Below, piece by piece: positions 3,962 to 63,381 of a stretch of DNA of 64,000 bases (the stretch's first letter is position 1; each line of letters begins with the position of its first letter). The stretch comes from a phage. The stretch lies in NCBI GenBank assembly GCA_025677605.1, contig GCA_025677605.1_4110.1. The stretch is one strand, 5' to 3'. Under the pieces are notes generated by a model. That model was not told the DNA's origin, ran no database searches, and worked only from the letters and a program-made list of their open reading frames with translations. The position numbers and the translations under genes are program-made.

Positions 3962-4753
3962 TTAGATTTCGAATACCAATTTAGGATTGTAATCGAAATT
4001 CTCACAAGCTCCACTATAAGATTCGTAACCTCTTGGATTACAAATGATACGTGTCTTACCGATGTGGTAATCAAAGCTACTATGAACATGACCATGAATC
4101 CAAACATCAGCACCCAAATCTTCAATGTACTGATCCATGTCTGAACAGTAACAACCATTCAGTGAATCGTTTTTATATTTTGGTGAAACACTTTGAAAAC
4201 TCGGTGCGTGATGGGTAATCACGATGACCTTGAAATCATTATCCTGCATTAAGCGTACTGTGTCAACTGAATTTTTGATAAATTGTTTATCTTTGTGATG
4301 CATGAACTCAGTATCTTCTGGTGTCAGTTTCTTACGCCAAGGCTCGGATGTTGTTCCATGACGGATGTGTTTATAATCGTTCATCTTCTGACGAGCATCA
4401 AACTTCGTCATGGAATTACCTTTGTCAAAGTCTGTCCACAGAGTACTACCAACGAGCAAAACACCATCCAGCCATACAAATTTGTTTTGCAAAAAGATGA
4501 AATTAGGAAACTCATCTTGTATATCGGACAGTACTTGATGCGTTTTGTAAATGTTCGAACCGTAGTACTCGTGGTTGCCAGGAACCAGTACTACATTCTT
4601 GAACTGCTTACACAGTGATTCGATGCCAGTACGATAACGGCTGCGTTTAACTTCATCGAAATCCCCTGCAATGATCAGTACTGTGTCACTGTAATCACCA
4701 CTGTGGAGGTAATCAGTGCCACCGTGCACATCAGATGTTACGACAAATTTCAT
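3962..4753 (-). CDS. calcineurin-like metallophosphoesterase
   Basis: Motifs SDVHGG, GDFDE, GNHEYY, HHAP, HGHVH; track ORF 3962..4825 trimmed to Met (MKFVVTSDVHGG) at 4753 preceded by GGAGG. Confidence 0.8.
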   Translation of the reverse strand: MKFVVTSDVHGGTDYLHSGDYSDTVLIIAGDFDEVKRSRYRTGIESLCKQFKNVVLVPGNHEYYGSNIYKTHQVLSDIQDEFPNFIFLQNKFVWLDGVLLVGSTLWTDFDKGNSMTKFDARQKMNDYKHIRHGTTSEPWRKKLTPEDTEFMHHKDKQFIKNSVDTVRLMQDNDFKVIVITHHAPSFQSVSPKYKNDSLNGCYCSDMDQYIEDLGADVWIHGHVHSSFDYHIGKTRIICNPRGYESYSGACENFDYNPKLVFEI

Positions 4754-4772
4754 AATTACCTCCAATAAATGT

Positions 4773-6191
4773 TTAGCCAAGTGATTCAATAATACTGTTT
4801 GAGAAGACCTCAACTGCACTATCACGAATTTCTAAGATACGAGTATAATCGTCACAAGTGTTTTTGTCAAATCTAAATTCAATAAACACTGGTAAGAATA
4901 GTGATGGTTCACCAGTACGCTTATCATATACTACGTCATTGCACTCAATTGTAACAACTTTGCCAATGAGTTCTTGCATTCTTTCCCAAATGGTTTTAAA
5001 TGTCCATTCAGCATCTTTCTCTTTAATGCCTGTTCCTACGCTTACTTTTAGTGTACCACAAGCACTTTCCAGTTGTAAAGAACCAAGCATACCTTTACGC
5101 TTACCTTCACCTTCATTGAAACCAACAATACGCAAGTCCAGTTGCATTTTCAATTTCATTTTCAACTGCTTAGGAGAAGTATGAGATTTCCAGATACCAT
5201 CTTCACATTTCAGTACTGAACCTTCTTCACCTGAACTCATGAGTTCAGAGTTGTAAGCAAAGGCTTCTTTGAGATCCTTCACCTTACGATATCCAACCAT
5301 ACGCACGAATTCACTACCTAATGCATTGATTGCACCTTCAAGAATCTCGCGACGTTCCTTACGTTTCACATCCCAGATACCAGCACAATAAGCATCATAT
5401 GGCACTACATCCCAGAGAACGAATACAGTACGCATTGCTTCGTTTTGGGTGATAGTATCCTTACCAGCTTTCTGAATGATGCCGTTACCAGTTGTACGTG
5501 GAAGAATAGTTTCCCCATCAGTATCCAGTACTAAACCCTCGCCCATAAAGACTACACCACTACTGAAACGTTCATCTGTACTTTGAATATGATGAGCAAG
5601 TCCAGCCATTTCAGCATCACGACAACCGAGGAAGTCATAAATCTTACCATTACGGGAAGTGGATGTTAATGATGCATTGATAACAACGTGGTTCAAGTAC
5701 TGACCATCCATCTTAACTTCAGCAACGGCATAACCATAATCTTTGAAGTTGATGTTCTTAGCAGTTTTCTTGTCAATCAATGAACAACGCATATAAGGTT
5801 CATCTTTAATAAAGCCTTTACCGAATACATCATTACAGTTCTTTTCCTGAATACCACAATCAAGGTTCTTCGTGAGCATTTTACGGAGAACTTCCTGATC
5901 ATCTTCAGATACGGAACCCAGTACTGAAGCAATGAAATCACGCCCCGTATTACCCGTCACACCACGCTTATAGATGCATTCTAGCTTATCAATAGCTTCA
6001 TCTAACGTCATATGTTGATACACGTCAGCAGCGTCTGGTAGCTTCTTATAGCCACTTACGATAGTAGGGTCTAGCGTATATTTCAGTACTTTTTTGAGTG
6101 TTTCATTGTTTTTGTTTTCTTCAAGGATTGCTTTCTTACCAAGTGTACTTGAAGTCTTTTTGATTTGTTCCAGAATTGCTAAAATGCTCAT
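4773..6191 (-). CDS. 30: ATP-dependent DNA ligase (T4 gp30-like)
   Basis: N-terminus ILAILEQIKKTSSTLGKKAILEENKNNETLKK resembles T4 DNA ligase N-terminus as I recall it; KxDG adenylation motif in VAEVKMDGQ; 472 aa. Confidence 0.9.
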   Translation of the reverse strand: MSILAILEQIKKTSSTLGKKAILEENKNNETLKKVLKYTLDPTIVSGYKKLPDAADVYQHMTLDEAIDKLECIYKRGVTGNTGRDFIASVLGSVSEDDQEVLRKMLTKNLDCGIQEKNCNDVFGKGFIKDEPYMRCSLIDKKTAKNINFKDYGYAVAEVKMDGQYLNHVVINASLTSTSRNGKIYDFLGCRDAEMAGLAHHIQSTDERFSSGVVFMGEGLVLDTDGETILPRTTGNGIIQKAGKDTITQNEAMRTVFVLWDVVPYDAYCAGIWDVKRKERREILEGAINALGSEFVRMVGYRKVKDLKEAFAYNSELMSSGEEGSVLKCEDGIWKSHTSPKQLKMKLKMQLDLRIVGFNEGEGKRKGMLGSLQLESACGTLKVSVGTGIKEKDAEWTFKTIWERMQELIGKVVTIECNDVVYDKRTGEPSLFLPVFIEFRFDKNTCDDYTRILEIRDSAVEVFSNSIIESLG

Positions 6192-23257: not shown

Positions 23258-23793
23258 GGTTCTTTCCTCATGTATTTTATTACATCTTTAAAAAGTTTTA
23301 TTTTCAAGTCATTATCATCACCTGGTAGATAAGAACTGAAGCTTTCAAAATCATCACGCTTAGCAAAAGAACGCATTTCAGTTGAACTGTACTTGCTAAC
23401 GGTTCGGTCTATACCAGCTTGGATTGCTTTTATATTACGAAAATTATACAAGTTTCCATTGTATCTGTCAAGTACATTTTGAAAGTTTTCTATCCTGTCT
23501 GAACCACATATGAAAAGAACATCACTGTACTTACCATTCAATTCCTGCATAATATCAAAAAGATTATCTTCAGTACTGATGTTGTGTTGAATTCTTGGAT
23601 AGAAACCCTCAGTGTAATACATTTTCAATTCAGGTGGTAATGGATTCTTAATACAATCTTGTGTAGTACTAAGGTATATTTTTAAATCAGCATTGTATTG
23701 TTCTTTCATCGATACGGCTTTATCAAAAATTAACCCATGTCCCAAATGCACTGGATTTATACGTCCATACGTTACTATACAAGTGTCTTTCAT
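23254..23793 (-). CDS. cytidylyltransferase-family nucleotidyltransferase (NMNAT/PPAT-like)
   Basis: N-terminal GRINPVHLGH (HxGH) motif and C-terminal SSTEMR (ISSTxIR-like) motif. Confidence 0.65.
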   Translation of the reverse strand: MKDTCIVTYGRINPVHLGHGLIFDKAVSMKEQYNADLKIYLSTTQDCIKNPLPPELKMYYTEGFYPRIQHNISTEDNLFDIMQELNGKYSDVLFICGSDRIENFQNVLDRYNGNLYNFRNIKAIQAGIDRTVSKYSSTEMRSFAKRDDFESFSSYLPGDDNDLKIKLFKDVIKYMRKEP

Positions 23794-24311
23794 ATATTCT
23801 TCATCACCTGACCGATAGATTTAAGATGGTTGATTTTAGCTGGTGTTAAGTACTTATCCAGTACTATTAAACAGCTAGGGAATGGAGCACTATCAGTCTT
23901 TTTATCTGGTTCTTCAGGGATGCCAAATTTTAAACGTCCTTTAATAAAACAAATACAGTCACAAAGCTTAGATGCATATTCCTGAAATGCAATTGTATCA
24001 GTACGTGATGGAACAAGTATCAGTACTGTTGCACCATTATTATAAGCATCAACTGCCTTAGATAGCCAAGGTTTCAGGTCGCTGTATGGTGGGTTAAGAA
24101 AGACGATATTGTTTCCCCAATCCTGTGAAAGACTATCATCTTCCGGTGTAAAAAACTTGTCACATAATGCAGTTTCTTTAACACATGCTGCATCAAGTGT
24201 GAATCCCCAGACTTCATCCAAATCTTCAAAGAATTCCTTTGGAGTAGTCCAGTTATCTTTTCCAGTACTGAAGTGTACCGAATGTTTTTTCGAAGCATCC
24301 TTCTTCGACAT
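23790..24311 (-). CDS. DNA N6-adenine methyltransferase (phage Dam-like)
   Basis: NPPY catalytic motif (VFLNPPYSD) and N-terminal DNWTTPKEFF block typical of phage N6-adenine MTase family; GGAG RBS. Confidence 0.75.
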   Translation of the reverse strand: MSKKDASKKHSVHFSTGKDNWTTPKEFFEDLDEVWGFTLDAACVKETALCDKFFTPEDDSLSQDWGNNIVFLNPPYSDLKPWLSKAVDAYNNGATVLILVPSRTDTIAFQEYASKLCDCICFIKGRLKFGIPEEPDKKTDSAPFPSCLIVLDKYLTPAKINHLKSIGQVMKNI

Positions 24312-24327
24312 AATACTTTCTCCATTA

Positions 24328-24942
24328 TTAAATTTTACTTATTGTTTCTGTTATCAAACCATTATCTAAATCATATTGTAAAATATCTATTCTACGCTTT
24401 ATTCCATTAATAACTCTTAAATCGACAACAGAACTGTATTTTTCTATGATTTCATATAGATATTTTATTTTCTCCCTTTGCCATACTTGATGAGCTTCTT
24501 CAGGTGTGTGAAATAACCCAAAGTTTCGTATTTGTTTTCCAAATTTACATATTGCAGGTCTATATTTTTTGGAACACCTATCATCATTGAAATACGACAC
24601 ACCAATATAATTATTACCTCTATTTCCGTCAATTATACAACTGTTAATTAAACCAGGTATAAAGGCACACGTTTCAGGTGAGTAAATATCTTTATCTCCC
24701 CCAATTATATCTTTATCTAATTGATATCCCTCAATATAGTGAAGTTTAAACCATTTTTTGAAATTGGAATAATATTTCCATTCATCACAAACTGTTGTGT
24801 TTATGTATGATAAATTCTTATCAGTTCTTTTAAGACTATAGCAACGCCTAATTATTCCAGTCCATTTATCATATATATGATAATCCAAACTTGATGGTAT
24901 GGAGTCGCCAGGAATGTCATTAATACCAAAATTATATATCAC
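24328..24942 (-). CDS. hypothetical protein (204 aa)
   Basis: Minus-strand ORF. Confidence 0.5.
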   Translation of the reverse strand: MIYNFGINDIPGDSIPSSLDYHIYDKWTGIIRRCYSLKRTDKNLSYINTTVCDEWKYYSNFKKWFKLHYIEGYQLDKDIIGGDKDIYSPETCAFIPGLINSCIIDGNRGNNYIGVSYFNDDRCSKKYRPAICKFGKQIRNFGLFHTPEEAHQVWQREKIKYLYEIIEKYSSVVDLRVINGIKRRIDILQYDLDNGLITETISKI

Positions 24943-24956
24943 TGATTTTCCTTTAA

Positions 24957-25499
24957 TTATAGACAGTTCTGTAAGATATTATCGAACAGTTTACTGTCCA
25001 GGTTGTACTCATATAAAAATTTAAATCTAGAACCGTACTTCATCATTATATTGAATGCTTCATCTTCTGCTAATACATAGAAGTTGAAGTCATCTACTGT
25101 ACCATTGAACCCAATAAAATCCATAATTTCAATAGTAACATCATGTCCTTGATGGAAGTACTTCACTGACAAAGGAAGTCCAAGAACACTATATTGTCTG
25201 GATTCCCCTTCTAATTTCCCATCTACAACATGGAATTTCCTTGATACTGTATTAGAATTATATCGCTCTTCTCCGTAATGTCCATAGCGAACAGAAAAAA
25301 TTACTGGGTTTTTTGTAGGTCTACAAGTGATTTTTGCTAGTTCTACACCTCCCATGTACTCAACAATATGATTGATAGTTCCTTTTTCTTTTACTATTTT
25401 ATATCCATCAAATGAATCTCTATCAAATTCTTCTAGTACTTCAAATTCTTTTGATTTATAAATGATCTCTGTTGTTTTGTTCTTTGAAAATACAGGCAT
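24957..25499 (-). CDS. hypothetical protein (180 aa)
   Basis: Minus-strand ORF; upstream is ~690 bp ORF-free region. Confidence 0.5.
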   Translation of the reverse strand: MPVFSKNKTTEIIYKSKEFEVLEEFDRDSFDGYKIVKEKGTINHIVEYMGGVELAKITCRPTKNPVIFSVRYGHYGEERYNSNTVSRKFHVVDGKLEGESRQYSVLGLPLSVKYFHQGHDVTIEIMDFIGFNGTVDDFNFYVLAEDEAFNIMMKYGSRFKFLYEYNLDSKLFDNILQNCL

Positions 25500-26138
25500 T
25501 ATTATTCCTTTTTAGGAAACATCAAATAATGTACTCGATGTTGATTTCGTTTGCACTCAATCAACATCAGTAGAATTAATTCATCGCTACGCTCTGAATA
25601 ATTCTAATAGTACTAAATGGTTTTAATTAATATTGACGAGGTTTGGAAGAGCATATTTCATCCCCCCACTGGGGGAAAGAATTAAAATTTGACGCTGGTG
25701 GTCTTCACATATTTCATATCACGAATTCTCTTAACGAGGCGAAAGCGGGTTGCTCTGTTTCTCTCTATCGCGGTTCTTGTAGCAACGGTCGTCGGTCTTA
25801 AACATCCCGACACATAATACGAGTACCATATGAACAGTACTGGTATTTGATTTCACCAAATTTTGGACGCAACTATCTTGTACAAATAGTTGACCGCAAT
25901 TTCTAATGAAATCTCCCTTAGCAAATCTGGTAAGGTGCGATCCTTATATGTCTATCTAGGAACTCTCTGTGTGCTTATCGGAGTTCTTTATACAGCCGCA
26001 TTGCCGTGAGGGGTTCATAATATGCCCACATCTGACGGGTTTCATCTGCTGTTCGTACTGAAAGGACTACTCATCTACCCTCTACATTTTCGAGTGGATT
26101 AGGCTCTTAATCATTTCCATATGGAACCTTTCAGGATT

Positions 26139-26172
26139 AAAAAAAAAGAGTGACAAAGATATATTGCCACTC
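26139..26172 (-). terminator. rho-independent terminator
   Basis: Hairpin GAGTGGC...GTCACTC (one G-U pair on minus-strand RNA) followed by nine U. Confidence 0.6.
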
Positions 26173-26192
26173 ATCATTATATCACCAAGAAT

Positions 26193-27032
26193 TTATTTGT
26201 CCTGGGTATTTTCAGTAAATTTCTTCCACAGTAGTAATGTATTTTGACGAATTATTTCAATATGTCTTGAACTAAATTGTCTTTCATTATCGTCCCATAG
26301 TGCATCTGAATTCAAAAATGCCAGAAATACAAATGCAACATCTTCTCGTGGGACATTGAATACTGTATTGTTCGTACATACACGATCCATTGGTACAGGC
26401 ATACCACCAGTACGATCACTGTACTGTAAGTCACGTGCCACCAGATTTACATCTTTGACGAATTTATGATTGATATAAGGCTTCAGAACGTTAAGGAAGT
26501 CATTATATCCATTATTGTGGTCAATTTCAAACATTACATGTTCAGTATTGTCCGCGTCTTCACAGTCGTTATTATTGCTATTTTTGAAATCAAAAAACCT
26601 TTCACTCATTCTACTGGAGTTTGAAGATGAACAATTACGTATACCACCAGAACGGCGTTTAATATTTTCTAAATCTTCATCAGTACTGGAATAATAAGTA
26701 AGATCATATGAATCATTACCAATCATAATACGCTTAGTATAATGGTTATAAACTATAAAGTCATAATCTTTAATACCAAGTAACATGAACTGGAATACTA
26801 ATTCATCCGGTACATCAACGAGTGCATGTTCAAAGTCTTCATATCTGGAACGGAATACAACATCCTTAAATCCACGGTAGATAATAAAATTACCAAAGTC
26901 GAAATAATTTTCATGCATATGGACATTTTCATTTCTGATGTATTCAGACGAAGCTGGTGCAACACGGTCATCTTCTGATGCGTAATGATCGGTTTCTTTA
27001 ACATTAAAGTTGATAATAAAATTTAATTTCAT
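26193..27032 (-). CDS. hypothetical protein (279 aa)
   Basis: Minus-strand ORF. Confidence 0.55.
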   Translation of the reverse strand: MKLNFIINFNVKETDHYASEDDRVAPASSEYIRNENVHMHENYFDFGNFIIYRGFKDVVFRSRYEDFEHALVDVPDELVFQFMLLGIKDYDFIVYNHYTKRIMIGNDSYDLTYYSSTDEDLENIKRRSGGIRNCSSSNSSRMSERFFDFKNSNNNDCEDADNTEHVMFEIDHNNGYNDFLNVLKPYINHKFVKDVNLVARDLQYSDRTGGMPVPMDRVCTNNTVFNVPREDVAFVFLAFLNSDALWDDNERQFSSRHIEIIRQNTLLLWKKFTENTQDK

Positions 27033-58946: not shown

Positions 58947-58948
58947 TT

Positions 58949-59170
58949 TTAAACACCTATTCCATTAGCAATAGCAGTACTTAACGCTAACAAATACTTC
59001 TGTACTGCTTGCTCTTGATGATCTGTACCTAAAAGTATATACACCCATAATTCACTGTAGTGTACATCTTCTGTATAAGGGTTGTTGTAACTTTTTGATA
59101 ATATAGCATCAAATTCAGATGCATGAACCCTTGTGAACTTAAGAATATCTTGTTGTGTTATGATTCTCAT
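58949..59170 (-). CDS. GTNYQ-family small protein, hypothetical
   Basis: Motif ILLGTDHQEQ. Confidence 0.5.
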   Translation of the reverse strand: MRIITQQDILKFTRVHASEFDAILSKSYNNPYTEDVHYSELWVYILLGTDHQEQAVQKYLLALSTAIANGIGV

Positions 59171-59382
59171 AGCTTTTCCTGTATAAGCTTCTTAAGTATT
59201 TCTATGTGTGAATTAACAGTTCTTTCTTGATGCTGTGTTCCTAAGAGTATCAGTACTATCATCTCTGAACGCAAAAGATTTTTTTCAAGTTCCCCTATAT
59301 CAGTTCTTGTATCAAGTACTAAAAATTTGTGATTATTCTTTCTGAATAGTTCTAAGTACTCTTGATTTGATATTGTCTTCAT
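59167..59382 (-). CDS. GTNYQ-family small protein, hypothetical
   Basis: Motif ILLGTQHQER. Confidence 0.5.
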   Translation of the reverse strand: MKTISNQEYLELFRKNNHKFLVLDTRTDIGELEKNLLRSEMIVLILLGTQHQERTVNSHIEILKKLIQEKL

Positions 59383-59609
59383 AGTTTATCCCTGATGCCA
59401 TTTAAAAGTGCTCTAATATGCTCCTGTACGAATTTGTACTGACTGTCTGTTCCTAGAGTGAGTAACAATCTTAAATCTGAACTTTTGATATGATATTCTA
59501 AATCATTATTTGATTCTTGCCTCAGTTTCTGAAAGGATGAGAAGTTTGCTGCCATTAGTTCAATGTATTCTGCTGTTCCTAGGGGTTTGTGTATGTGCTG
59601 TCTGTGCAT
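59379..59609 (-). CDS. GTNYQ-family small protein, hypothetical
   Basis: Motif LTLGTDSQYK. Confidence 0.5.
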   Translation of the reverse strand: MHRQHIHKPLGTAEYIELMAANFSSFQKLRQESNNDLEYHIKSSDLRLLLTLGTDSQYKFVQEHIRALLNGIRDKL

Positions 59610-59815
59610 TTTAATTGTATTACCCTTTTAAGTGTATTAATATAATCCACGATGATGTGTTCTTGATAGTTAGTTCCTATAGTAGCTAGAACATAGATTT
59701 CACTTATTAGAATATTTTTTTCATCCTGTGATAATTCTTCTGACCAGCTACGATGCAACTTTGGAATTAAACTACTTAATAGTTGGTTGTATTCAGTAGG
59801 TGAAATGATTTTCAT
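59579..59815 (-). CDS. GTNYQ-family small protein, hypothetical
   Basis: Motif ATIGTNYQEH. Confidence 0.5.
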   Translation of the reverse strand: MKIISPTEYNQLLSSLIPKLHRSWSEELSQDEKNILISEIYVLATIGTNYQEHIIVDYINTLKRVIQLKCTDSTYTNP

Positions 59816-60027
59816 TTACATCTTCTCAGTACTGATTCTTTAAGTTCATCGATGTAGTCCTCAACAAATTGTTCTTGTAGGTTTGTTCCGAGATGTAACA
59901 GTACTCTTAAATCTGCTCTAAGTACTTCTTTGTCATCTTCATCTATATCAGACAGTGATATGTTTAAGAATTTACTTGAATTCTCTATAAGTAATATTAC
60001 TTCATCACCTTCGCTTAAAATTTTCAT
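59812..60027 (-). CDS. GTNYQ-family small protein, hypothetical
   Basis: Motif LHLGTNLQEQ. Confidence 0.5.
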   Translation of the reverse strand: MKILSEGDEVILLIENSSKFLNISLSDIDEDDKEVLRADLRVLLHLGTNLQEQFVEDYIDELKESVLRRCK

Positions 60028-60239
60028 AATCTTTGTGTTTTCCTCGACAGTAGGTACAGGTAACGTTCAGTGCATTGTTCTTGATAGTTTGTTCCTAATA
60101 AATGAACTAATTGTTGTTCAGCTATAGAAAGCTGTTTATCTTCATAACAAGCGTATCGTTGTTTCCTATGGTATTCTTTATTGATAACATCAAGGATGAT
60201 AACACCGTATTCGTCATCTGTCAAGTGTTTCATGTGCAT
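60024..60239 (-). CDS. GTNYQ-family small protein, hypothetical
   Basis: Motif HLLGTNYQEQ. Confidence 0.5.
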   Translation of the reverse strand: MHMKHLTDDEYGVIILDVINKEYHRKQRYACYEDKQLSIAEQQLVHLLGTNYQEQCTERYLYLLSRKTQRL

Positions 60240-60471
60240 TTCTTTTTCTTATATGTTTAGTTAAAAGGTATATTAGTTTTCTTACGTACTCGTCTTGATA
60301 GTTAGTCCCTAATAGTGCAAGAAGTTTTGCTTCAACTAAAGCTAATTGTCGTTCTTCAAATGTGTGTTCCAGAATGTACTTGGGGTTTGATTTTTTAGAA
60401 ATTGCACTATTAGTCTTCATTATAATCTTATGATATTCATTGACTGTTAAGATTTTTATATATTTGGTCAT
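60214..60471 (-). CDS. GTNYQ-family small protein, hypothetical
   Basis: Motif ALLGTNYQDE. Confidence 0.5.
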   Translation of the reverse strand: MTKYIKILTVNEYHKIIMKTNSAISKKSNPKYILEHTFEERQLALVEAKLLALLGTNYQDEYVRKLIYLLTKHIRKRNAHETLDR

Positions 60472-60727
60472 GTATCTTTTCCTGAATAGTCATTTTAAGA
60501 TATCTAAGAATCGATCGAACATAATACTCCTGTCTATCGGTTCCAAGAAAGTACAGGAGTTGTTGATATAATACTTCTGCACTCCTTGCAGCAGGGGTTT
60601 GATTTGGGTCTTTTGGAAGTTGATTTGTATGTTTTCTGGATTTAATTATTCTTTCTTTTATTTCATCGTCTGTTAAGTATATCATTTGCATTTTATGTTC
60701 CTCACATGAATTGTTTGGATTAAACAT
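60437..60727 (-). CDS. GTNYQ-family small protein, hypothetical
   Basis: Motif YFLGTDRQEY. Confidence 0.5.
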   Translation of the reverse strand: MFNPNNSCEEHKMQMIYLTDDEIKERIIKSRKHTNQLPKDPNQTPAARSAEVLYQQLLYFLGTDRQEYYVRSILRYLKMTIQEKIHDQIYKNLNSQ

Positions 60728-60918
60728 TCAATCCAAGATGTAACATATCTTGTTTGATATTGTGTGCCTAAGAGACTCTGCATTTTAAACTCTGCTTCAA
60801 GTTCATATCTCTTTTCTATCGTAAAGCTTAAATGACCATATTCTGCATCGTATCTTCTCAGTGATTCCCCAATTCTATCAAATCTTTCTGCTAAGTTGAT
60901 GTTATTCACAGTATTCAT
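60682..60918 (-). CDS. GTNYQ-family small protein, hypothetical
   Basis: Motif SLLGTQYQTR. Confidence 0.5.
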   Translation of the reverse strand: MNTVNNINLAERFDRIGESLRRYDAEYGHLSFTIEKRYELEAEFKMQSLLGTQYQTRYVTSWIECLIQTIHVRNIKCK

Positions 60919-61178
60919 CGATCAGTACACCTCAGTGGTTGGGTCATTTGATAAAAGTACAGCTTACCTCTGATTTCCATTAACAACTCGGCTATGACGC
61001 GATTTACTTCTGTCTCTTGATAGTTTGTTCCTAAGAAGACACCCATCTTTAACTCACGATGCATAATCATCTTCTTACTGTGTTGAATTTCTTGGCTGTA
61101 ATAGATTGCATTACGTTTAGGTGAGATTTTTGCTAGTCGCTCGTTATATTCATCTTGACTTAAATTAATCATTTGCAT
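60915..61178 (-). CDS. GTNYQ-family small protein, hypothetical
   Basis: Motif VFLGTNYQET. Confidence 0.5.
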   Translation of the reverse strand: MQMINLSQDEYNERLAKISPKRNAIYYSQEIQHSKKMIMHRELKMGVFLGTNYQETEVNRVIAELLMEIRGKLYFYQMTQPLRCTDR

Positions 61179-61393
61179 TTACTTTGGACCTCATTTTGAA
61201 GTGCATTAATGACCTTCAGTACAGCACTCGCTTGATAGTTTGTTCCTAAGACTGAAAGCATCTTGATCTCATTTACTACAATCCACTTATTTGATTGTTC
61301 AATAATGTGACTTTCATAAATGGCCTTGCGTAATGAATAAGTTTTTGCAAGACGTACATAATATTCATCTTTACTTAAATTAATCATTTGCAT
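61169..61393 (-). CDS. GTNYQ-family small protein, hypothetical
   Basis: Motif SVLGTNYQAS. Confidence 0.5.
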   Translation of the reverse strand: MQMINLSKDEYYVRLAKTYSLRKAIYESHIIEQSNKWIVVNEIKMLSVLGTNYQASAVLKVINALQNEVQSKCK

Positions 61394-61602
61394 TTACTTT
61401 TAACCTCTTTCTGGAGTGCATCAATCCATAGGTCTATATACGTTTGTTGATAGTTTGTGCCTAAGAGTGCCTCTACATAGAGTTCAGCTACCTTTGCGTG
61501 CTTTAGGTCAACAGGGATGCTCTTATCGCTTGATAACATTCTCCTTCTGCTGGTGCATGTTTTCAGAAGCCTGATGTATTCAACACCTTGTAATTTTCTC
61601 AT
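61384..61602 (-). CDS. GTNYQ-family small protein, hypothetical
   Basis: Motif ALLGTNYQQT. Confidence 0.5.
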   Translation of the reverse strand: MRKLQGVEYIRLLKTCTSRRRMLSSDKSIPVDLKHAKVAELYVEALLGTNYQQTYIDLWIDALQKEVKSKCK

Positions 61603-61814
61603 TCTCTGGATATCACCTTGTTACGTAGACTTGCTAACCATGCGTCAGTATAGATGTTTTGATAGTTTGTCCCAATGAAGATAGATAGCTTCATTTCAGT
61701 TATTATAACACATTTGTCCACTTGTGCAATAGATTTGTTTAAAGAAATACTAGAAACTTTTGCTTGTATAGTTCGCAACAGCCTGTAATATTCATACCCA
61801 CTAAGGATTTTCAT
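61599..61814 (-). CDS. GTNYQ-family small protein, hypothetical
   Basis: Motif IFIGTNYQNI. Confidence 0.5.
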   Translation of the reverse strand: MKILSGYEYYRLLRTIQAKVSSISLNKSIAQVDKCVIITEMKLSIFIGTNYQNIYTDAWLASLRNKVISRE

Positions 61815-62061
61815 TCTCTCGTCTCCAGACTTCCGTTCTTATATGTTGTTGATATGCTTCCAGATAGTTCTCTATTGCCTTAGAGATTGTTTGTGTATCG
61901 TCGCCCGTCATCAGTACAAGCATCTCTGCTTCACAGTGTATAAGTCTGCTAATATCATTAGTGAGTTTATCAGATACCGTATCATAGTGTTTGTGGATTA
62001 GTTTCTGAAATAGTTTAACGTACATAATGTGATTTATTCTGGATCGCATTGTCTTTTCCAT
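61801..62061 (-). CDS. GTNYQ-family small protein (diverged), hypothetical
   Basis: Motif LMTGDDTQTI. Confidence 0.45.
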   Translation of the reverse strand: MEKTMRSRINHIMYVKLFQKLIHKHYDTVSDKLTNDISRLIHCEAEMLVLMTGDDTQTISKAIENYLEAYQQHIRTEVWRRENENP

Positions 62062-62285
62062 TCTCTTTTGGCCTGTCGGGTTTTATACGCTACAAGGTTT
62101 CTTAGTGCATTGATATAACGATCAGTGAAGATATCTTGTTTATTAGTTCCAACGAATTTAAGAAGAAACACGTCACCATTAACTACATCATTCTCAGGGG
62201 AAGGATAAAGTTCATTGTTCTTGCGAAGGGTGTTTAGTAAAGAGAATAGGGCAGATTGATACTCAGTGCTTGATAATACTTTCAT
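62034..62285 (-). CDS. GTNYQ-family small protein, hypothetical
   Basis: Motif KFVGTNKQDI. Confidence 0.5.
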   Translation of the reverse strand: MKVLSSTEYQSALFSLLNTLRKNNELYPSPENDVVNGDVFLLKFVGTNKQDIFTDRYINALRNLVAYKTRQAKREWKRQCDPE

Positions 62286-62509
62286 TAGTTCATTCCCTTT
62301 CTTTCTATATGTTTCATAAGAACATTAAGATACTCACCCACAAACCTATTCTGATACTGCGTCCCCATGAATTCAAACAGCCATACTTCAGCAACCATTT
62401 CTTCAATTTCATTCCAAGATAAGTACATCATAGTGAAGTAAATGTGGTTCTCTTTTTGAGATGCACTCCTTGAGCGAGCCTCGTATTCAAAGTTATTAAT
62501 GCAGTTCAT
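62285..62509 (-). CDS. GTNYQ-family small protein, hypothetical
   Basis: Motif EFMGTQYQNR. Confidence 0.5.
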   Translation of the reverse strand: MNCINNFEYEARSRSASQKENHIYFTMMYLSWNEIEEMVAEVWLFEFMGTQYQNRFVGEYLNVLMKHIERKGMN

Positions 62510-62718
62510 AGTTTACTCCTGATGTATTTCTCAAGAGCTATTAGATACTCTTGGACATAAGATTTCTGGTGGTCAGTTCCTAAGAAGACACCCAGAAGTA
62601 ATTCTTTTTCCATAACTTTTGATAAGTATACATCATCCCTGTCTGCATATATCAGCAAGATTTCAATCTGCTTAGAATTGTAACGTTTCCTATATTGCTC
62701 TGGTGTTAATATAATCAT
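62506..62718 (-). CDS. GTNYQ-family small protein, hypothetical
   Basis: Motif VFLGTDHQKS. Confidence 0.5.
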   Translation of the reverse strand: MIILTPEQYRKRYNSKQIEILLIYADRDDVYLSKVMEKELLLGVFLGTDHQKSYVQEYLIALEKYIRSKL

Positions 62719-62924
62719 AGTTTACTCTTTATATCTTCAATTAAAAATCCAATACAATCATTGACATACTCTTCCTGAAAGTTAGTCCCCAGTACAGCCA
62801 ACATGCGATACTCTGCTGACCTTATCGCTCTTTCAGTTTTTGGTAAGTTACGTGGTATAGTTACCATCAATTCAAGATACTCCACCATACGACTCAATGC
62901 TTGTCTTTGTGTTATAGTTTTCAT
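62715..62924 (-). CDS. GTNYQ-family small protein, hypothetical
   Basis: Motif AVLGTNFQEE. Confidence 0.5.
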   Translation of the reverse strand: MKTITQRQALSRMVEYLELMVTIPRNLPKTERAIRSAEYRMLAVLGTNFQEEYVNDCIGFLIEDIKSKL

Positions 62925-63121
62925 AATTTACACCTCGCTCGTATGTCAGCTTTCAAAGATTCCAAATAGTGCGTTACCCACACTTCCTGATAGTTGGTTC
63001 CCATCGTAATCAACAGGTACAACTCAACTCTTTCTAAGTGCACATTGCTTTGGTAAATCCTTGCCGTGTTTTTACGTAGTATATGATGATATTCATCTTG
63101 GGTTAATGTACGCATTTTCAT
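62921..63121 (-). CDS. GTNYQ-family small protein, hypothetical
   Basis: Motif ITMGTNYQEV. Confidence 0.5.
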   Translation of the reverse strand: MKMRTLTQDEYHHILRKNTARIYQSNVHLERVELYLLITMGTNYQEVWVTHYLESLKADIRARCKL

Positions 63122-63315
63122 AGTTTACCATTTATCTCTAAACATAACTCTTTTACATATAGTTTAACATATTCATTTTGTAAGTTAGTTCCTAAGAATA
63201 GTTCCATAACTAATTCACGTTTATAGGCATTACCACGTTTATGAGACTTATACATTATCATAGCCATGTTATTGATAAGTCTTTCGTGATGCTCTTCTTG
63301 TGTTAAAATACGCAT
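63118..63315 (-). CDS. GTNYQ-family small protein, hypothetical
   Basis: Motif LFLGTNLQNE. Confidence 0.5.
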   Translation of the reverse strand: MRILTQEEHHERLINNMAMIMYKSHKRGNAYKRELVMELFLGTNLQNEYVKLYVKELCLEINGKL

Positions 63316-63342
63316 AGGGCAAATTCCATAGGTTCATATATG

Positions 63343-63371
63343 AAAAAACATCATACCCCATATGAGGCATG
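63343..63371 (-). terminator. putative rho-independent terminator
   Basis: Imperfect hairpin (G-U pairs on minus-strand RNA) at 63352-63371 followed by UUUUUU. Confidence 0.4.
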
Positions 63372-63381
63372 ATGTCAAGTG

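Follow-up and report, generated by a model that had tools for sequence, protein, structure and literature searches.

Introduction

Large, intricately folded RNAs without an assigned role are rare, and each new class has repaid study. The descriptive class of large ornate non-coding RNAs (ncRNAs) such as GOLLD, ROOL, OLE, HEARO and raiA is characterized by a length above 400 nt, covarying helices, pseudoknots and sequences that do not code for protein. In the Rak2-related jumbo phage PA5oct, RNA sequencing defined four transcribed regions free of open reading frames (ORFs), ncRNA001 to ncRNA004, which are 236-619 nt long and of which two are highly expressed throughout infection (PMC7318152). 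Here we report that all features of the ornate class are found in an RNA predicted from a 64,000-nucleotide stretch of phage DNA (contig GCA_025677605.1_4110.1 of the GenBank assembly GCA_025677605.1; the whole stretch is called the window below). The ORF-free interval 25500-26192 of the window contains most of what, judged from the sequence, is a minus-strand, promoter-equipped, non-coding and highly structured RNA gene at about 26203-25633, the predicted RNA being some 500-540 nt long. With Escherichia phage A4 (ON286972.1), an Asteriusvirus and jumbo myovirus with a genome of 355 kb, the region shares 99.6-99.7% identity. The RNA represents an undescribed multi-copy family, which we rate as a new class; literature searches returned no description of it, within a searchable literature that is incomplete.

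Results

The ORF-free gap and its composition

The gap of 693 bp lies exactly between the minus-strand genes 24957-25499 and 26193-27032, and its longest ORF comprises 52 aa. A sequence-only reading of the window had pointed to it as the only long stretch without a credible ORF and as an island of elevated GC content. The first statement is true for gaps of at least 250 bp at a cut-off of 60 aa, where 25500-26192 is the sole such gap in the 64-kb window. The second is borne out by the core 25620-26115, which has 41.7% GC compared with 33.7 +/- 3.0% in 500-bp windows, a value reached by only 0.4% of them; GC enrichment within an AT-rich genome is typical of stable RNAs. In the RNA body (columns 61-715 of alignment A1, described below) each of the six frames contains 6-12 stop codons, and the indels between orthologs are mostly not multiples of three (8 of 8 against the copy of phage 121Q, 12-15 against other copies). 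Because of these stops in all frames and the indels not in threes the region is regarded as non-coding. ARAGORN predicted neither tRNA nor tmRNA genes in the whole window, in agreement with the absence of a recognizable cloverleaf in the gap. The Rfam scan that had been proposed for identification (Rfam 15, 4227 models, whole window) gave no match to any family at the gathering score, and permissive searches with the region (E<=10) and with five other copies (E<=5) returned unrelated sub-threshold noise only.

Fold and covariation

Alignment A1 consists of 36 distinct copies in sense orientation. Among them, the four paralogs of phage A4 (c1, the window copy, to c4) show highly conserved blocks with insertions of variable length in between, and compensatory changes are already visible by eye (GTTGC/GCAAC vs. 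GTCAT/ATGAC). RNAalifold predicted 62 pairs from A1, 37 of which have compensatory double changes; three pseudoknots and one loop-to-strand helix emerged in addition from a scan for mutual information and a search for stems. The model that was tested was assembled by hand and comprises 73 pairs in 16 helices, three of these being pseudoknots. Over the 36 copies, 97.9% of the pair cells are paired, compared with 78.2% in shuffled alignments, none of 500 reaching the observed value, and 38-44% with slid partners. Two-sided changes occur in 49 of the 73 pairs, compensatory cells number 488 compared with 138 +/- 10 in shuffles, the covariation score amounts to 0.54 compared with 0.18, and many pairs exist in three or four Watson-Crick types. 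The pseudoknots PK1, PK2 and PK3 are 100% paired and covarying, and the helices S6, Hj, Hc' and Hk each contain 3-5 pairs with two-sided compensatory changes; in the central region of A1 (columns 314-432) gaps are too frequent for pairs to be counted reliably. For the window copy, the minimum free energy corresponds to z = -2.57.

Copies outside the alignment fit the model as well. When 17 metagenomic copies were tried, one (L055) was set aside as a chance motif match, because it forms 30 of 65 pairs and fails the family profile; the other 16 form 62-73 of their 64-73 scoreable pairs, and a copy found in an Escherichia coli island fits 65 of 72. The pairing frequency relative to shuffles, the two-sided changes in 49 of 73 pairs and the covarying pseudoknots together form the basis for identifying the product as an RNA.

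A structured ncRNA had been one of several candidates in the sequence-only reading, and it is now strongly supported by the invariant promoter (see below) and the 16 covarying helices including three pseudoknots; the suggested comparison with related phages revealed massive base-pair covariation. Another candidate was a decayed gene, and a plain promoter-containing spacer had been named for the case that the region has no conserved structure and aligns to nothing. A long spacer or decayed gene that carries nothing but promoter and terminator signals would be compatible with the missing annotation in 62 phage records, and no other observation speaks for it. In these 62 records the region does align, and among the 36 copies of A1 its fold covaries; it is more conserved than the flanking genes, and it has been kept across several genera under base-pair rather than codon constraint, with indels mostly not in threes, 49 covarying pairs and three pseudoknots. 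We consider this explanation already refuted, its remaining chance being negligible.

The elements of the window copy are, in the order of transcription:

26193-27032, minus strand: upstream flanking gene, 279 aa, phrog_15199 (ORF list and profile match)
26198-26203, minus strand: -35-like box AGGACA (promoter scan; upstream regions of 36 copies)
26176-26185, minus strand: extended -10 element gTGaTATAAT (scan; A1 columns 10-19)
26139-26172, minus strand: 5' hairpin GAGTGGCA...TGTCACTC, then U9 (terminator scan; order kept in 11 type I copies)
25948-26134, minus strand: 5' domain with S1, Hb, Hc, PK1, S2, S3, S4 and PK2 (alignment fold, mutual information, pair counts)
26134-26127 with 26065-26058, minus strand: S1, 5' domain
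26070-26068 with 26057-26055, minus strand: pseudoknot PK1, 5' domain
26052-26048 with 25996-25992, minus strand: S2, 5' domain
26038-26035 with 26007-26004, minus strand: S3, 5' domain
26001-25999 with 25950-25948, minus strand: pseudoknot PK2, 5' domain
25986-25960, minus strand: S4 hairpin, 5' domain
25840-25947, minus strand: central variable region with a small AAGG...CCUU hairpin and hairpins whose length varies between paralogs (A1 columns 314-432)
25915-25922, minus strand: motif UAAGGGAG with invariant AAGGGAG, central region (A1)
25713-25839, minus strand: 3' domain with S5/S6, PK3, Hj, Hc' and Hk (covariation, pair counts)
25839-25824, minus strand: S5 hairpin, whose loop forms S6 with 25719-25713, 3' domain
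25786-25782 with 25753-25749, minus strand: pseudoknot PK3, 3' domain
25772-25768 with 25724-25720, minus strand: Hj, 3' domain
25765-25741, minus strand: Hc', 3' domain
25738-25728, minus strand: Hk, 3' domain
25689-25701, minus strand: repeat R1, CCACCAGCGUCAA (CUAUCAUCGUCAG in most copies), here with no terminator after it (A1 columns 611-623)
25658-25680, minus strand: C/G hairpin, UUCUUUCCCCC AGU GGGGGGAUGAA (helix 16 of the pair model)
25633-25645, minus strand: repeat R2, CAAACCUCGUCAA, a direct repeat of R1 (A1 columns 700-712)
25593-25632, minus strand: AT-rich tract directly after R2 (AT content in 10-nt bins, 36 copies)
25537-25568, minus strand: 10-bp hairpin GAUGUUGAUU...AAUCAACAUC in the leader of the downstream gene (sequence; downstream alignments)
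25499, minus strand: start of the 180-aa gene (ORF list)
24957-25499, minus strand: downstream flanking gene, 180 aa, phrog_16210 (ORF list and profile match)

In GenBank records, small ORFs for hypothetical proteins, some with ribosome-binding site (RBS) features, have been placed on top of RNA copies (for example g047/g048 of fHe-Yen9-04 and A4_511). Given the covariation evidence these ORFs are most probably spurious. This concerns dozens of deposited genomes, in which an ncRNA feature should replace them.

Promoter, strand and terminators

The extended -10 element TGnTATAAT is present on the minus strand in all 36 copies, with invariant T, G and TA.AAT positions, and 15 of the 17 metagenomic copies keep it; in the window it reads TGATATAAT (26184-26176). 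A -35-like TGRRAC box is located 16-17 nt upstream of it; the window has AGGACA at this place, and 20 of 36 copies have TGAAAC. For the phages CBB and GAP32 a 'divergent RpoD-like' promoter class with the -35 box TGAAACG and the -10 box TATA has been reported, and 11 of the 18 such promoters of CBB are situated in a region rich in DNA-synthesis genes (PMC5259590). The promoter of the RNA is of the same class.

Several lines of evidence bear on the strand. The helices defined by covariation contain 161 G-U vs. 25 A-C cells in the minus orientation, or 117 vs. 25 without the C/G hairpin, a count that is somewhat biased since the helices were selected in this orientation; helices predicted in both orientations have 39 vs. 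37 wobble cells and are uninformative. In the C/G hairpin the pairing GGGGG never varies, and the flanking G as well as A, G and A of the AUGA are nearly invariant. Its C-arm changes only from C to U, helix 16 showing exclusively CG-to-UG changes (44 cells). This hairpin is the clearest strand indicator, and its sequence pattern indicates that the RNA extends past the terminator site. Because promoter, terminators with U-runs, C/G hairpin and wobble counts agree, the RNA is assigned to the minus strand. A TTGACG on the plus strand was also considered as promoter and rejected, since it has no usable -10 element and the wobble evidence favours the minus strand.

The sequence-only reading had described a strong terminator at 26139-26172 as boundary of the gap, without naming a strand. 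The hairpin is real, with a 9-bp stem followed by T9, and terminator-like on the minus strand only; it is more than a boundary, as it sits past the RNA's own promoter. From its sequence and position it would be the intrinsic terminator of the upstream gene and, because it lies downstream of the RNA promoter, also the first structure of the transcript, where it may act as attenuator or 5' stabiliser. The arrangement of promoter, hairpin with U-run and RNA without a terminator after R1 is found in 11 orthologous copies from several genera including the window copy ('type I'), while seven copies have neither this 5' hairpin with U-run nor the terminator after R1 ('type IV'). Half of the copies (18 of 36) have an intrinsic terminator inserted immediately behind R1, which the terminator scan confirmed for A4 c2 and c3, and in type VI copies R1 itself is the 5' arm of the terminator. 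Even in terminator-bearing copies the C/G hairpin beyond the terminator is under RNA-type (U-G) constraint; therefore, some transcripts must read through.

The repeats and the region downstream of the RNA

The repeats R1 and R2, between which the terminator site and the C/G hairpin are located, vary in concert from copy to copy. The columns 614/704 are UU in 27 copies and CC in nine with no discordant case, and such concerted changes occur even within one genome. Observed combinations are AUCAUCGUCAG with AUC-UCGUCAG, ACCAGUGUCAG with ACC-GUGUCAA and ACCACCGUCAG with ACC-CCGUCAG. An RNAduplex search for a partner of R1, R2 or the terminator arms gave no consistent result, with the G-run region recurring weakly. 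The possibility that GGGGGGAUGA represents RBS and start codon of a small peptide was rejected, as c4-type copies have no AUG and 1-nt indels shift the frame.

Directly after R2 the AT content is 73-85% in the first four 10-nt bins compared with about 60-67% further on (36 copies), and beyond this tract long hairpins with repeated ACGAA motifs follow. Many paralog loci have a covarying hairpin of the form UUCUUGAC-arm-loop-arm-GGCAAAU about 65-110 nt downstream of R2 and 10-25 nt before the RBS of the next gene, these genes being otherwise unrelated (loci L012, L017, L026, L041, L044, L054 and others); the analogue in the window is the hairpin 25537-25568. A role as processing site or as stabilising element is conceivable, by which the ncRNA would be set apart from the mRNA. 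The downstream genes vary by locus and encode, according to the translated DNA, an ADP-ribosylglycohydrolase-like GDALG protein, a DPPY methyltransferase and several others. In the window, RNA and 180-aa gene (24957-25499) are probably co-transcribed, because no terminator is predicted between them. The c3/type V copies (A4_c3, L028, L026, L047), carried by A4, 121Q, Serratia phage BF and a further contig, are followed by the bidirectional terminator of a convergent gene, which is annotated only in A4 and was read from the sequence elsewhere. They have no co-oriented gene behind them and keep the fold, hence the RNA cannot be only a leader.

These observations bear on the idea that the RNA is a cis-acting transcription module, in which the nascent RNA, by acting on its own polymerase or by sensing a factor, would control read-through of the terminator and thereby expression of the genes behind it, either by put-like antitermination or as a giant leader comparable to riboswitches or T-boxes. 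The order of promoter, fold, terminator (18 of 36 copies), post-terminator hairpin, pre-RBS hairpin and locus-specific genes would fit such a module; the hairpin that varies only from C to U implies passage through the terminator, R1 doubles as terminator arm in type VI, the copies are oriented with long same-strand gene arrays, and the island unit in E. coli also lies upstream of co-oriented genes. It is difficult to reconcile with the c3/type V copies, which retain the fold although, in three lineages (Asteriusvirus, Serratia phage BF and one more), no co-oriented gene follows them. Moreover, the RNA is not followed by a terminator in types I and IV, that of type I precedes it, a consistent antiterminator partner could be found neither for R1 and R2 nor for the terminator arms, and the RNA has about six times the size of put and twice that of T-box leaders. 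We judge such a role unlikely.

Distribution of the RNA family

Using blastn, the region was found in 62 phage records, all from Rak2-related jumbo phages infecting Escherichia, Salmonella, Yersinia, Erwinia, Klebsiella, Serratia, Cronobacter, Pectobacterium and Xanthomonas, with 4-5 matching places per record. Identity was 84-88% for the Escherichia-phage records, with one exception, and for four Salmonella-phage records out of eight; the remaining records, including those of the other host genera, gave 66-74%. RaK2 and K64-1 were not among the blastn matches. The matches span intergenic DNA rather than the flanking genes, and the gap is better conserved than these genes. A motif scan of IMG/VR added 37 instances, located on contigs of 350-380 kb and on fragments, besides six matches due to chance, and metagenomes scanned with a two-block motif contributed 32 loci of this kind; the copies from both sources come almost only from 350-380 kb contigs. 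Among 185,579 prokaryotic species genomes the strict two-block motif matched once, and this match fails the family profile and is due to chance; a plasmid search gave no match to the RNA family. Within the searches made, the family is confined to this jumbo-phage clade and one rare E. coli island.

This island was detected when 5,426 complete E. coli genomes were searched, two of which hold a full-length copy. In strain LR-29-1 (NZ_AP027515.1) the copy resides in a 1.4-kb ORF-free gap of an approximately 10-kb island beside ffs:

LR-29-1 island (L088, 7956-18300): integrase split by IS3, resolvase and the candidate defence system PDC-M45, with the components DuOB, DUF488 and mSLOG/DUF4326

Retained in the island copy are the promoter TGATATAAT, the fold, the C/G hairpin and R2, together with a terminator that is weakened. 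Its homology to phages covers exactly S1 to R2, about 590 bp, and is highest with the copy of Serratia phage BF (80.6%). For the two neighbouring island proteins examined (303 and 257 aa), no homologs exist in these jumbo phages, therefore the island took no larger phage fragment. The end of homology at S1 and R2 thus defines the functional unit, which can move and persist alone. After the RNA copy the island has about 700 bp more ORF-free DNA with ATCGATCG-type repeats.

Paralogs and genome-scale layout

Phage A4 has its four paralogs in one orientation, with c1 at about 65 kb, c2 at 126 kb, c3 at 206 kb and c4 at 321 kb; the latter three lie outside the 64-kb window, which contains no further copy. 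Related genera have 5-6 copies per genome. According to searches with the family profile, each genome has its copies on a single strand, spread widely over syntenic sites at distances of 40-115 kb, for example:

Yersinia phage fHe-Yen9-04 (354 kb): 24, 93, 174, 260 and 335 kb, one strand (family profile)
371-kb contig: 21, 105, 187, 251 and 311 kb, one strand (family profile)
355-kb contig: 13, 70, 109, 166, 233 and 329 kb, one strand (family profile)

For random points on a circle, the chance of so large a minimum gap is about 0.001-0.03 per genome, these probabilities being from related genomes and the tests not independent. The paralog types recur across genera, seemingly in the same order and at similar positions, as judged without formal clustering; hence the paralogs predate the genus split and have not been homogenised. 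Their specific peripheral hairpins suggest divided roles rather than simple dosage.

Such a layout brings replication origins into consideration, which the sequence-only reading had also listed. By analogy with known primer RNAs, the structured RNA might be a pre-primer that hybridises at the G-run, R2 and the AT tract and primes the leading strand; the identity of R1 and R2 would then result from pairing between the R1 segment of the RNA and the template strand at R2. Consistent with this idea are the 4-6 well-spread, one-strand copies per genome with their low probability under random placement, the fixation of the paralogs at syntenic sites, and the promoter of the TGAAACG class, which in CBB is enriched near DNA-synthesis genes. 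Furthermore, all copies have the near-invariant six-G run followed by the tract of 73-85% AT, R1 and R2 covary directly with no RNA partner found, the phages possess T4-type genes for replication and recombination, among them RNase H, and capture of the unit would let an integrative island ride on phage replication. However, in 18 of 36 copies an intrinsic terminator stands between the RNA body and the proposed hybrid site, and a fold with three pseudoknots and invariant junction bases goes beyond any known primer RNA. GC and AT skew in A4 follow gene orientation and show no feature at the copies; a GC-skew analysis had been suggested in the sequence-only reading. The spacing could also reflect the survival of direct repeats separated by essential genes, and uniform orientation is weak evidence where most genes share a strand. 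We rate the origin function, including the pairing of R1 with the template at R2, as improbable but as the strongest rival, slightly ahead of the cis-acting transcription module.

Neighbouring genes and the possibility of a mobile-element remnant

The gene neighbourhood of the RNA includes an ORF for a 204-aa protein at 24328-24942 (minus strand), two genes away, which matches HNH endonuclease families (phrog_953, E 1e-64, only the C-terminal half of the profile being matched) and adjoins the gene 23790-24311 (minus strand), annotated as DNA N6-adenine methyltransferase. Its sequence is compatible with a free-standing or truncated homing endonuclease gene, which it may be.

Introns and homing-endonuclease cassettes had been among the suggestions of the sequence-only reading, and T4-like phages are rich in introns. 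The RNA could accordingly be viewed as the functionless remnant of a mobile or self-splicing element, i.e. a group I or II intron, a homing-endonuclease cassette or a guide RNA derived from an insertion sequence. Its multiple dispersed copies, the precise unit boundaries, the transfer into a bacterial island and the HNH-family ORF nearby would be in accordance with such an origin. All copies, including the four of A4, are intergenic, however, and the flanking ORFs are complete with their own stop (26193) and start (25499). No intron model of group I or II, HEARO or any other Rfam model matched even at E<=10, every copy keeps its promoter, and ancient syntenic paralogs with purifying and compensatory evolution are unlike decay. 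As far as inspection can tell, PK1-PK3 do not map onto the P3/P7 topology of group I introns; a by-eye likeness to conserved regions of RNase P and to the R/S elements of group I introns was dismissed, as it has no model support. We regard the remnant explanation as highly improbable, and even in combination with the plain spacer it would account for very little of the overall probability.

Some observations concern the source phage in general. The window interval matching A4 50-91 kb is about 630 bp shorter than in A4, the source being a close A4 relative. At 58947-63381 the window has no ORF of at least 100 aa over 4.4 kb, the A4 counterpart being a dense one-strand array of genes for about 60-130 aa. 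Outside the window, the A4 record has 2 kb without annotated gene amid tiny genes at 4139-6138, with no match to the RNA family, and at 230273-232584 its large terminase subunit is annotated as two ORFs with a 275-bp gap in between, a split that may be due to an intron, an intein-like interruption or a frameshift.

Discussion

Possible function of the RNA

Among the functions considered here we favour that the RNA works in its own right, as a trans-acting ribonucleoprotein, scaffold, decoy or ribozyme. This reading draws on the elaborate fold with its invariant junction nucleotides, the autonomy of the unit and its persistence without a downstream gene; taken together with the claims on the identity of the RNA, we hold it with a confidence that is even or slightly below. 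The gene has a sigma-70-type promoter (TGnTATAAT plus TGRRAC box), from which transcription is predicted to start near 26170. The predicted transcript begins with the hairpin and U-run, continues into a compact body (26134-25713, about 420 nt), in which at least 16 helices including the three pseudoknots form, and then passes R1, the C/G hairpin and R2. Host RNA polymerase would make the RNA from the start of infection or together with the class of DNA-synthesis genes, and the RNA might then bind a conserved protein or nucleic-acid partner in trans rather than regulate the gene behind it.

Several observations weigh against a trans-acting RNA. It leaves the regular spacing and the uniform orientation of the copies unexplained, as well as the persistence of every paralog at a syntenic site of its own with no homogenisation. 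The presence of the post-terminator module, i.e. the C/G hairpin and R2, in the conserved unit and the coordinated changes of R1 and R2 are not explained either. In the window type, the terminator-like hairpin straight after the promoter should cut the output, and neither a partner protein nor a catalytic motif was identified.

As a second, more tentative possibility, which we rate clearly lower, the RNA might act in cis at the genome scale, with each copy influencing replication or long-range transcription of a domain of about 70 kb. It could do so either as RNA-primed origin, where R1 pairs with the template at R2, or as giant antitermination RNA, and the E. coli island might have captured its copy to exploit or sabotage that mechanism. 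The 4-6 ancient, regularly spaced paralogs on one strand hint at a link to replication or transcription of the 350-kb phage chromosome.

A function of the RNA in its own right, like the genome-scale possibility, is accessible to experiments, since the RNA is present in the cultivable E. coli phages 121Q, PBECO4, phAPEC6 and A4 and hence directly testable. Moreover, the capture of a copy by an island beside a candidate defence system suggests a new RNA-level interface in the conflict between phage and host.

Comparison with known systems

As regards position, the RNA resembles HK022 put, riboswitches and T-boxes, being downstream of a promoter and before a terminator and genes (the put position in 18 of 36 copies). 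With riboswitch and T-box leaders it shares the same sensor-like core before different genes, with 3' 'platforms' that vary. However, put is about 70 nt long with two stems, whereas the RNA body described here has about 420 nt and 16 helices and is at least six times larger. In contrast to riboswitches, attenuators and T-boxes, the c3/type V copies have no co-oriented downstream gene. An alternative pairing of terminator and antiterminator could not be demonstrated with RNAduplex.

Similarities also exist to ColE1 RNA II and to oriF and oriG of phage T4, the latter being origins composed of a promoter and an unwinding element. In the present family a promoter for the host polymerase precedes a folded RNA, some 500 nt in length, which would run into a G-run and an AT tract. 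As in T4, there are several sites per genome, and the phages possess T4-like replication genes and RNase H. Unlike in these systems, half of the copies contain terminators, the fold has three pseudoknots, and the copies show no compositional origin signal. T4 has origins that lack homology among themselves and do not require a conserved RNA fold, whereas the RNA copies reported here are homologous.

The ncRNAs of PA5oct come from a related phage. They are not paralogs of one another and do not have the TGnTATAAT promoter, unlike the present family, and nhmmer with the family profile gave no match in the four PA5oct ncRNAs.

With GOLLD, ROOL and OLE the RNA has in common a length of several hundred nucleotides, many covarying helices, pseudoknots and invariant junction nucleotides, furthermore its own promoter, often its own terminator, the association with phages and the discovery by conservation. 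It differs from them in having no match to their Rfam models, in its occurrence in Gram-negative jumbo myoviruses, and in not being located beside tRNA genes. Finally, each genome contains 4-6 diverged, evenly spread and co-oriented paralogs, a layout which we have not found described for GOLLD, ROOL or OLE and which sets this family apart from them.

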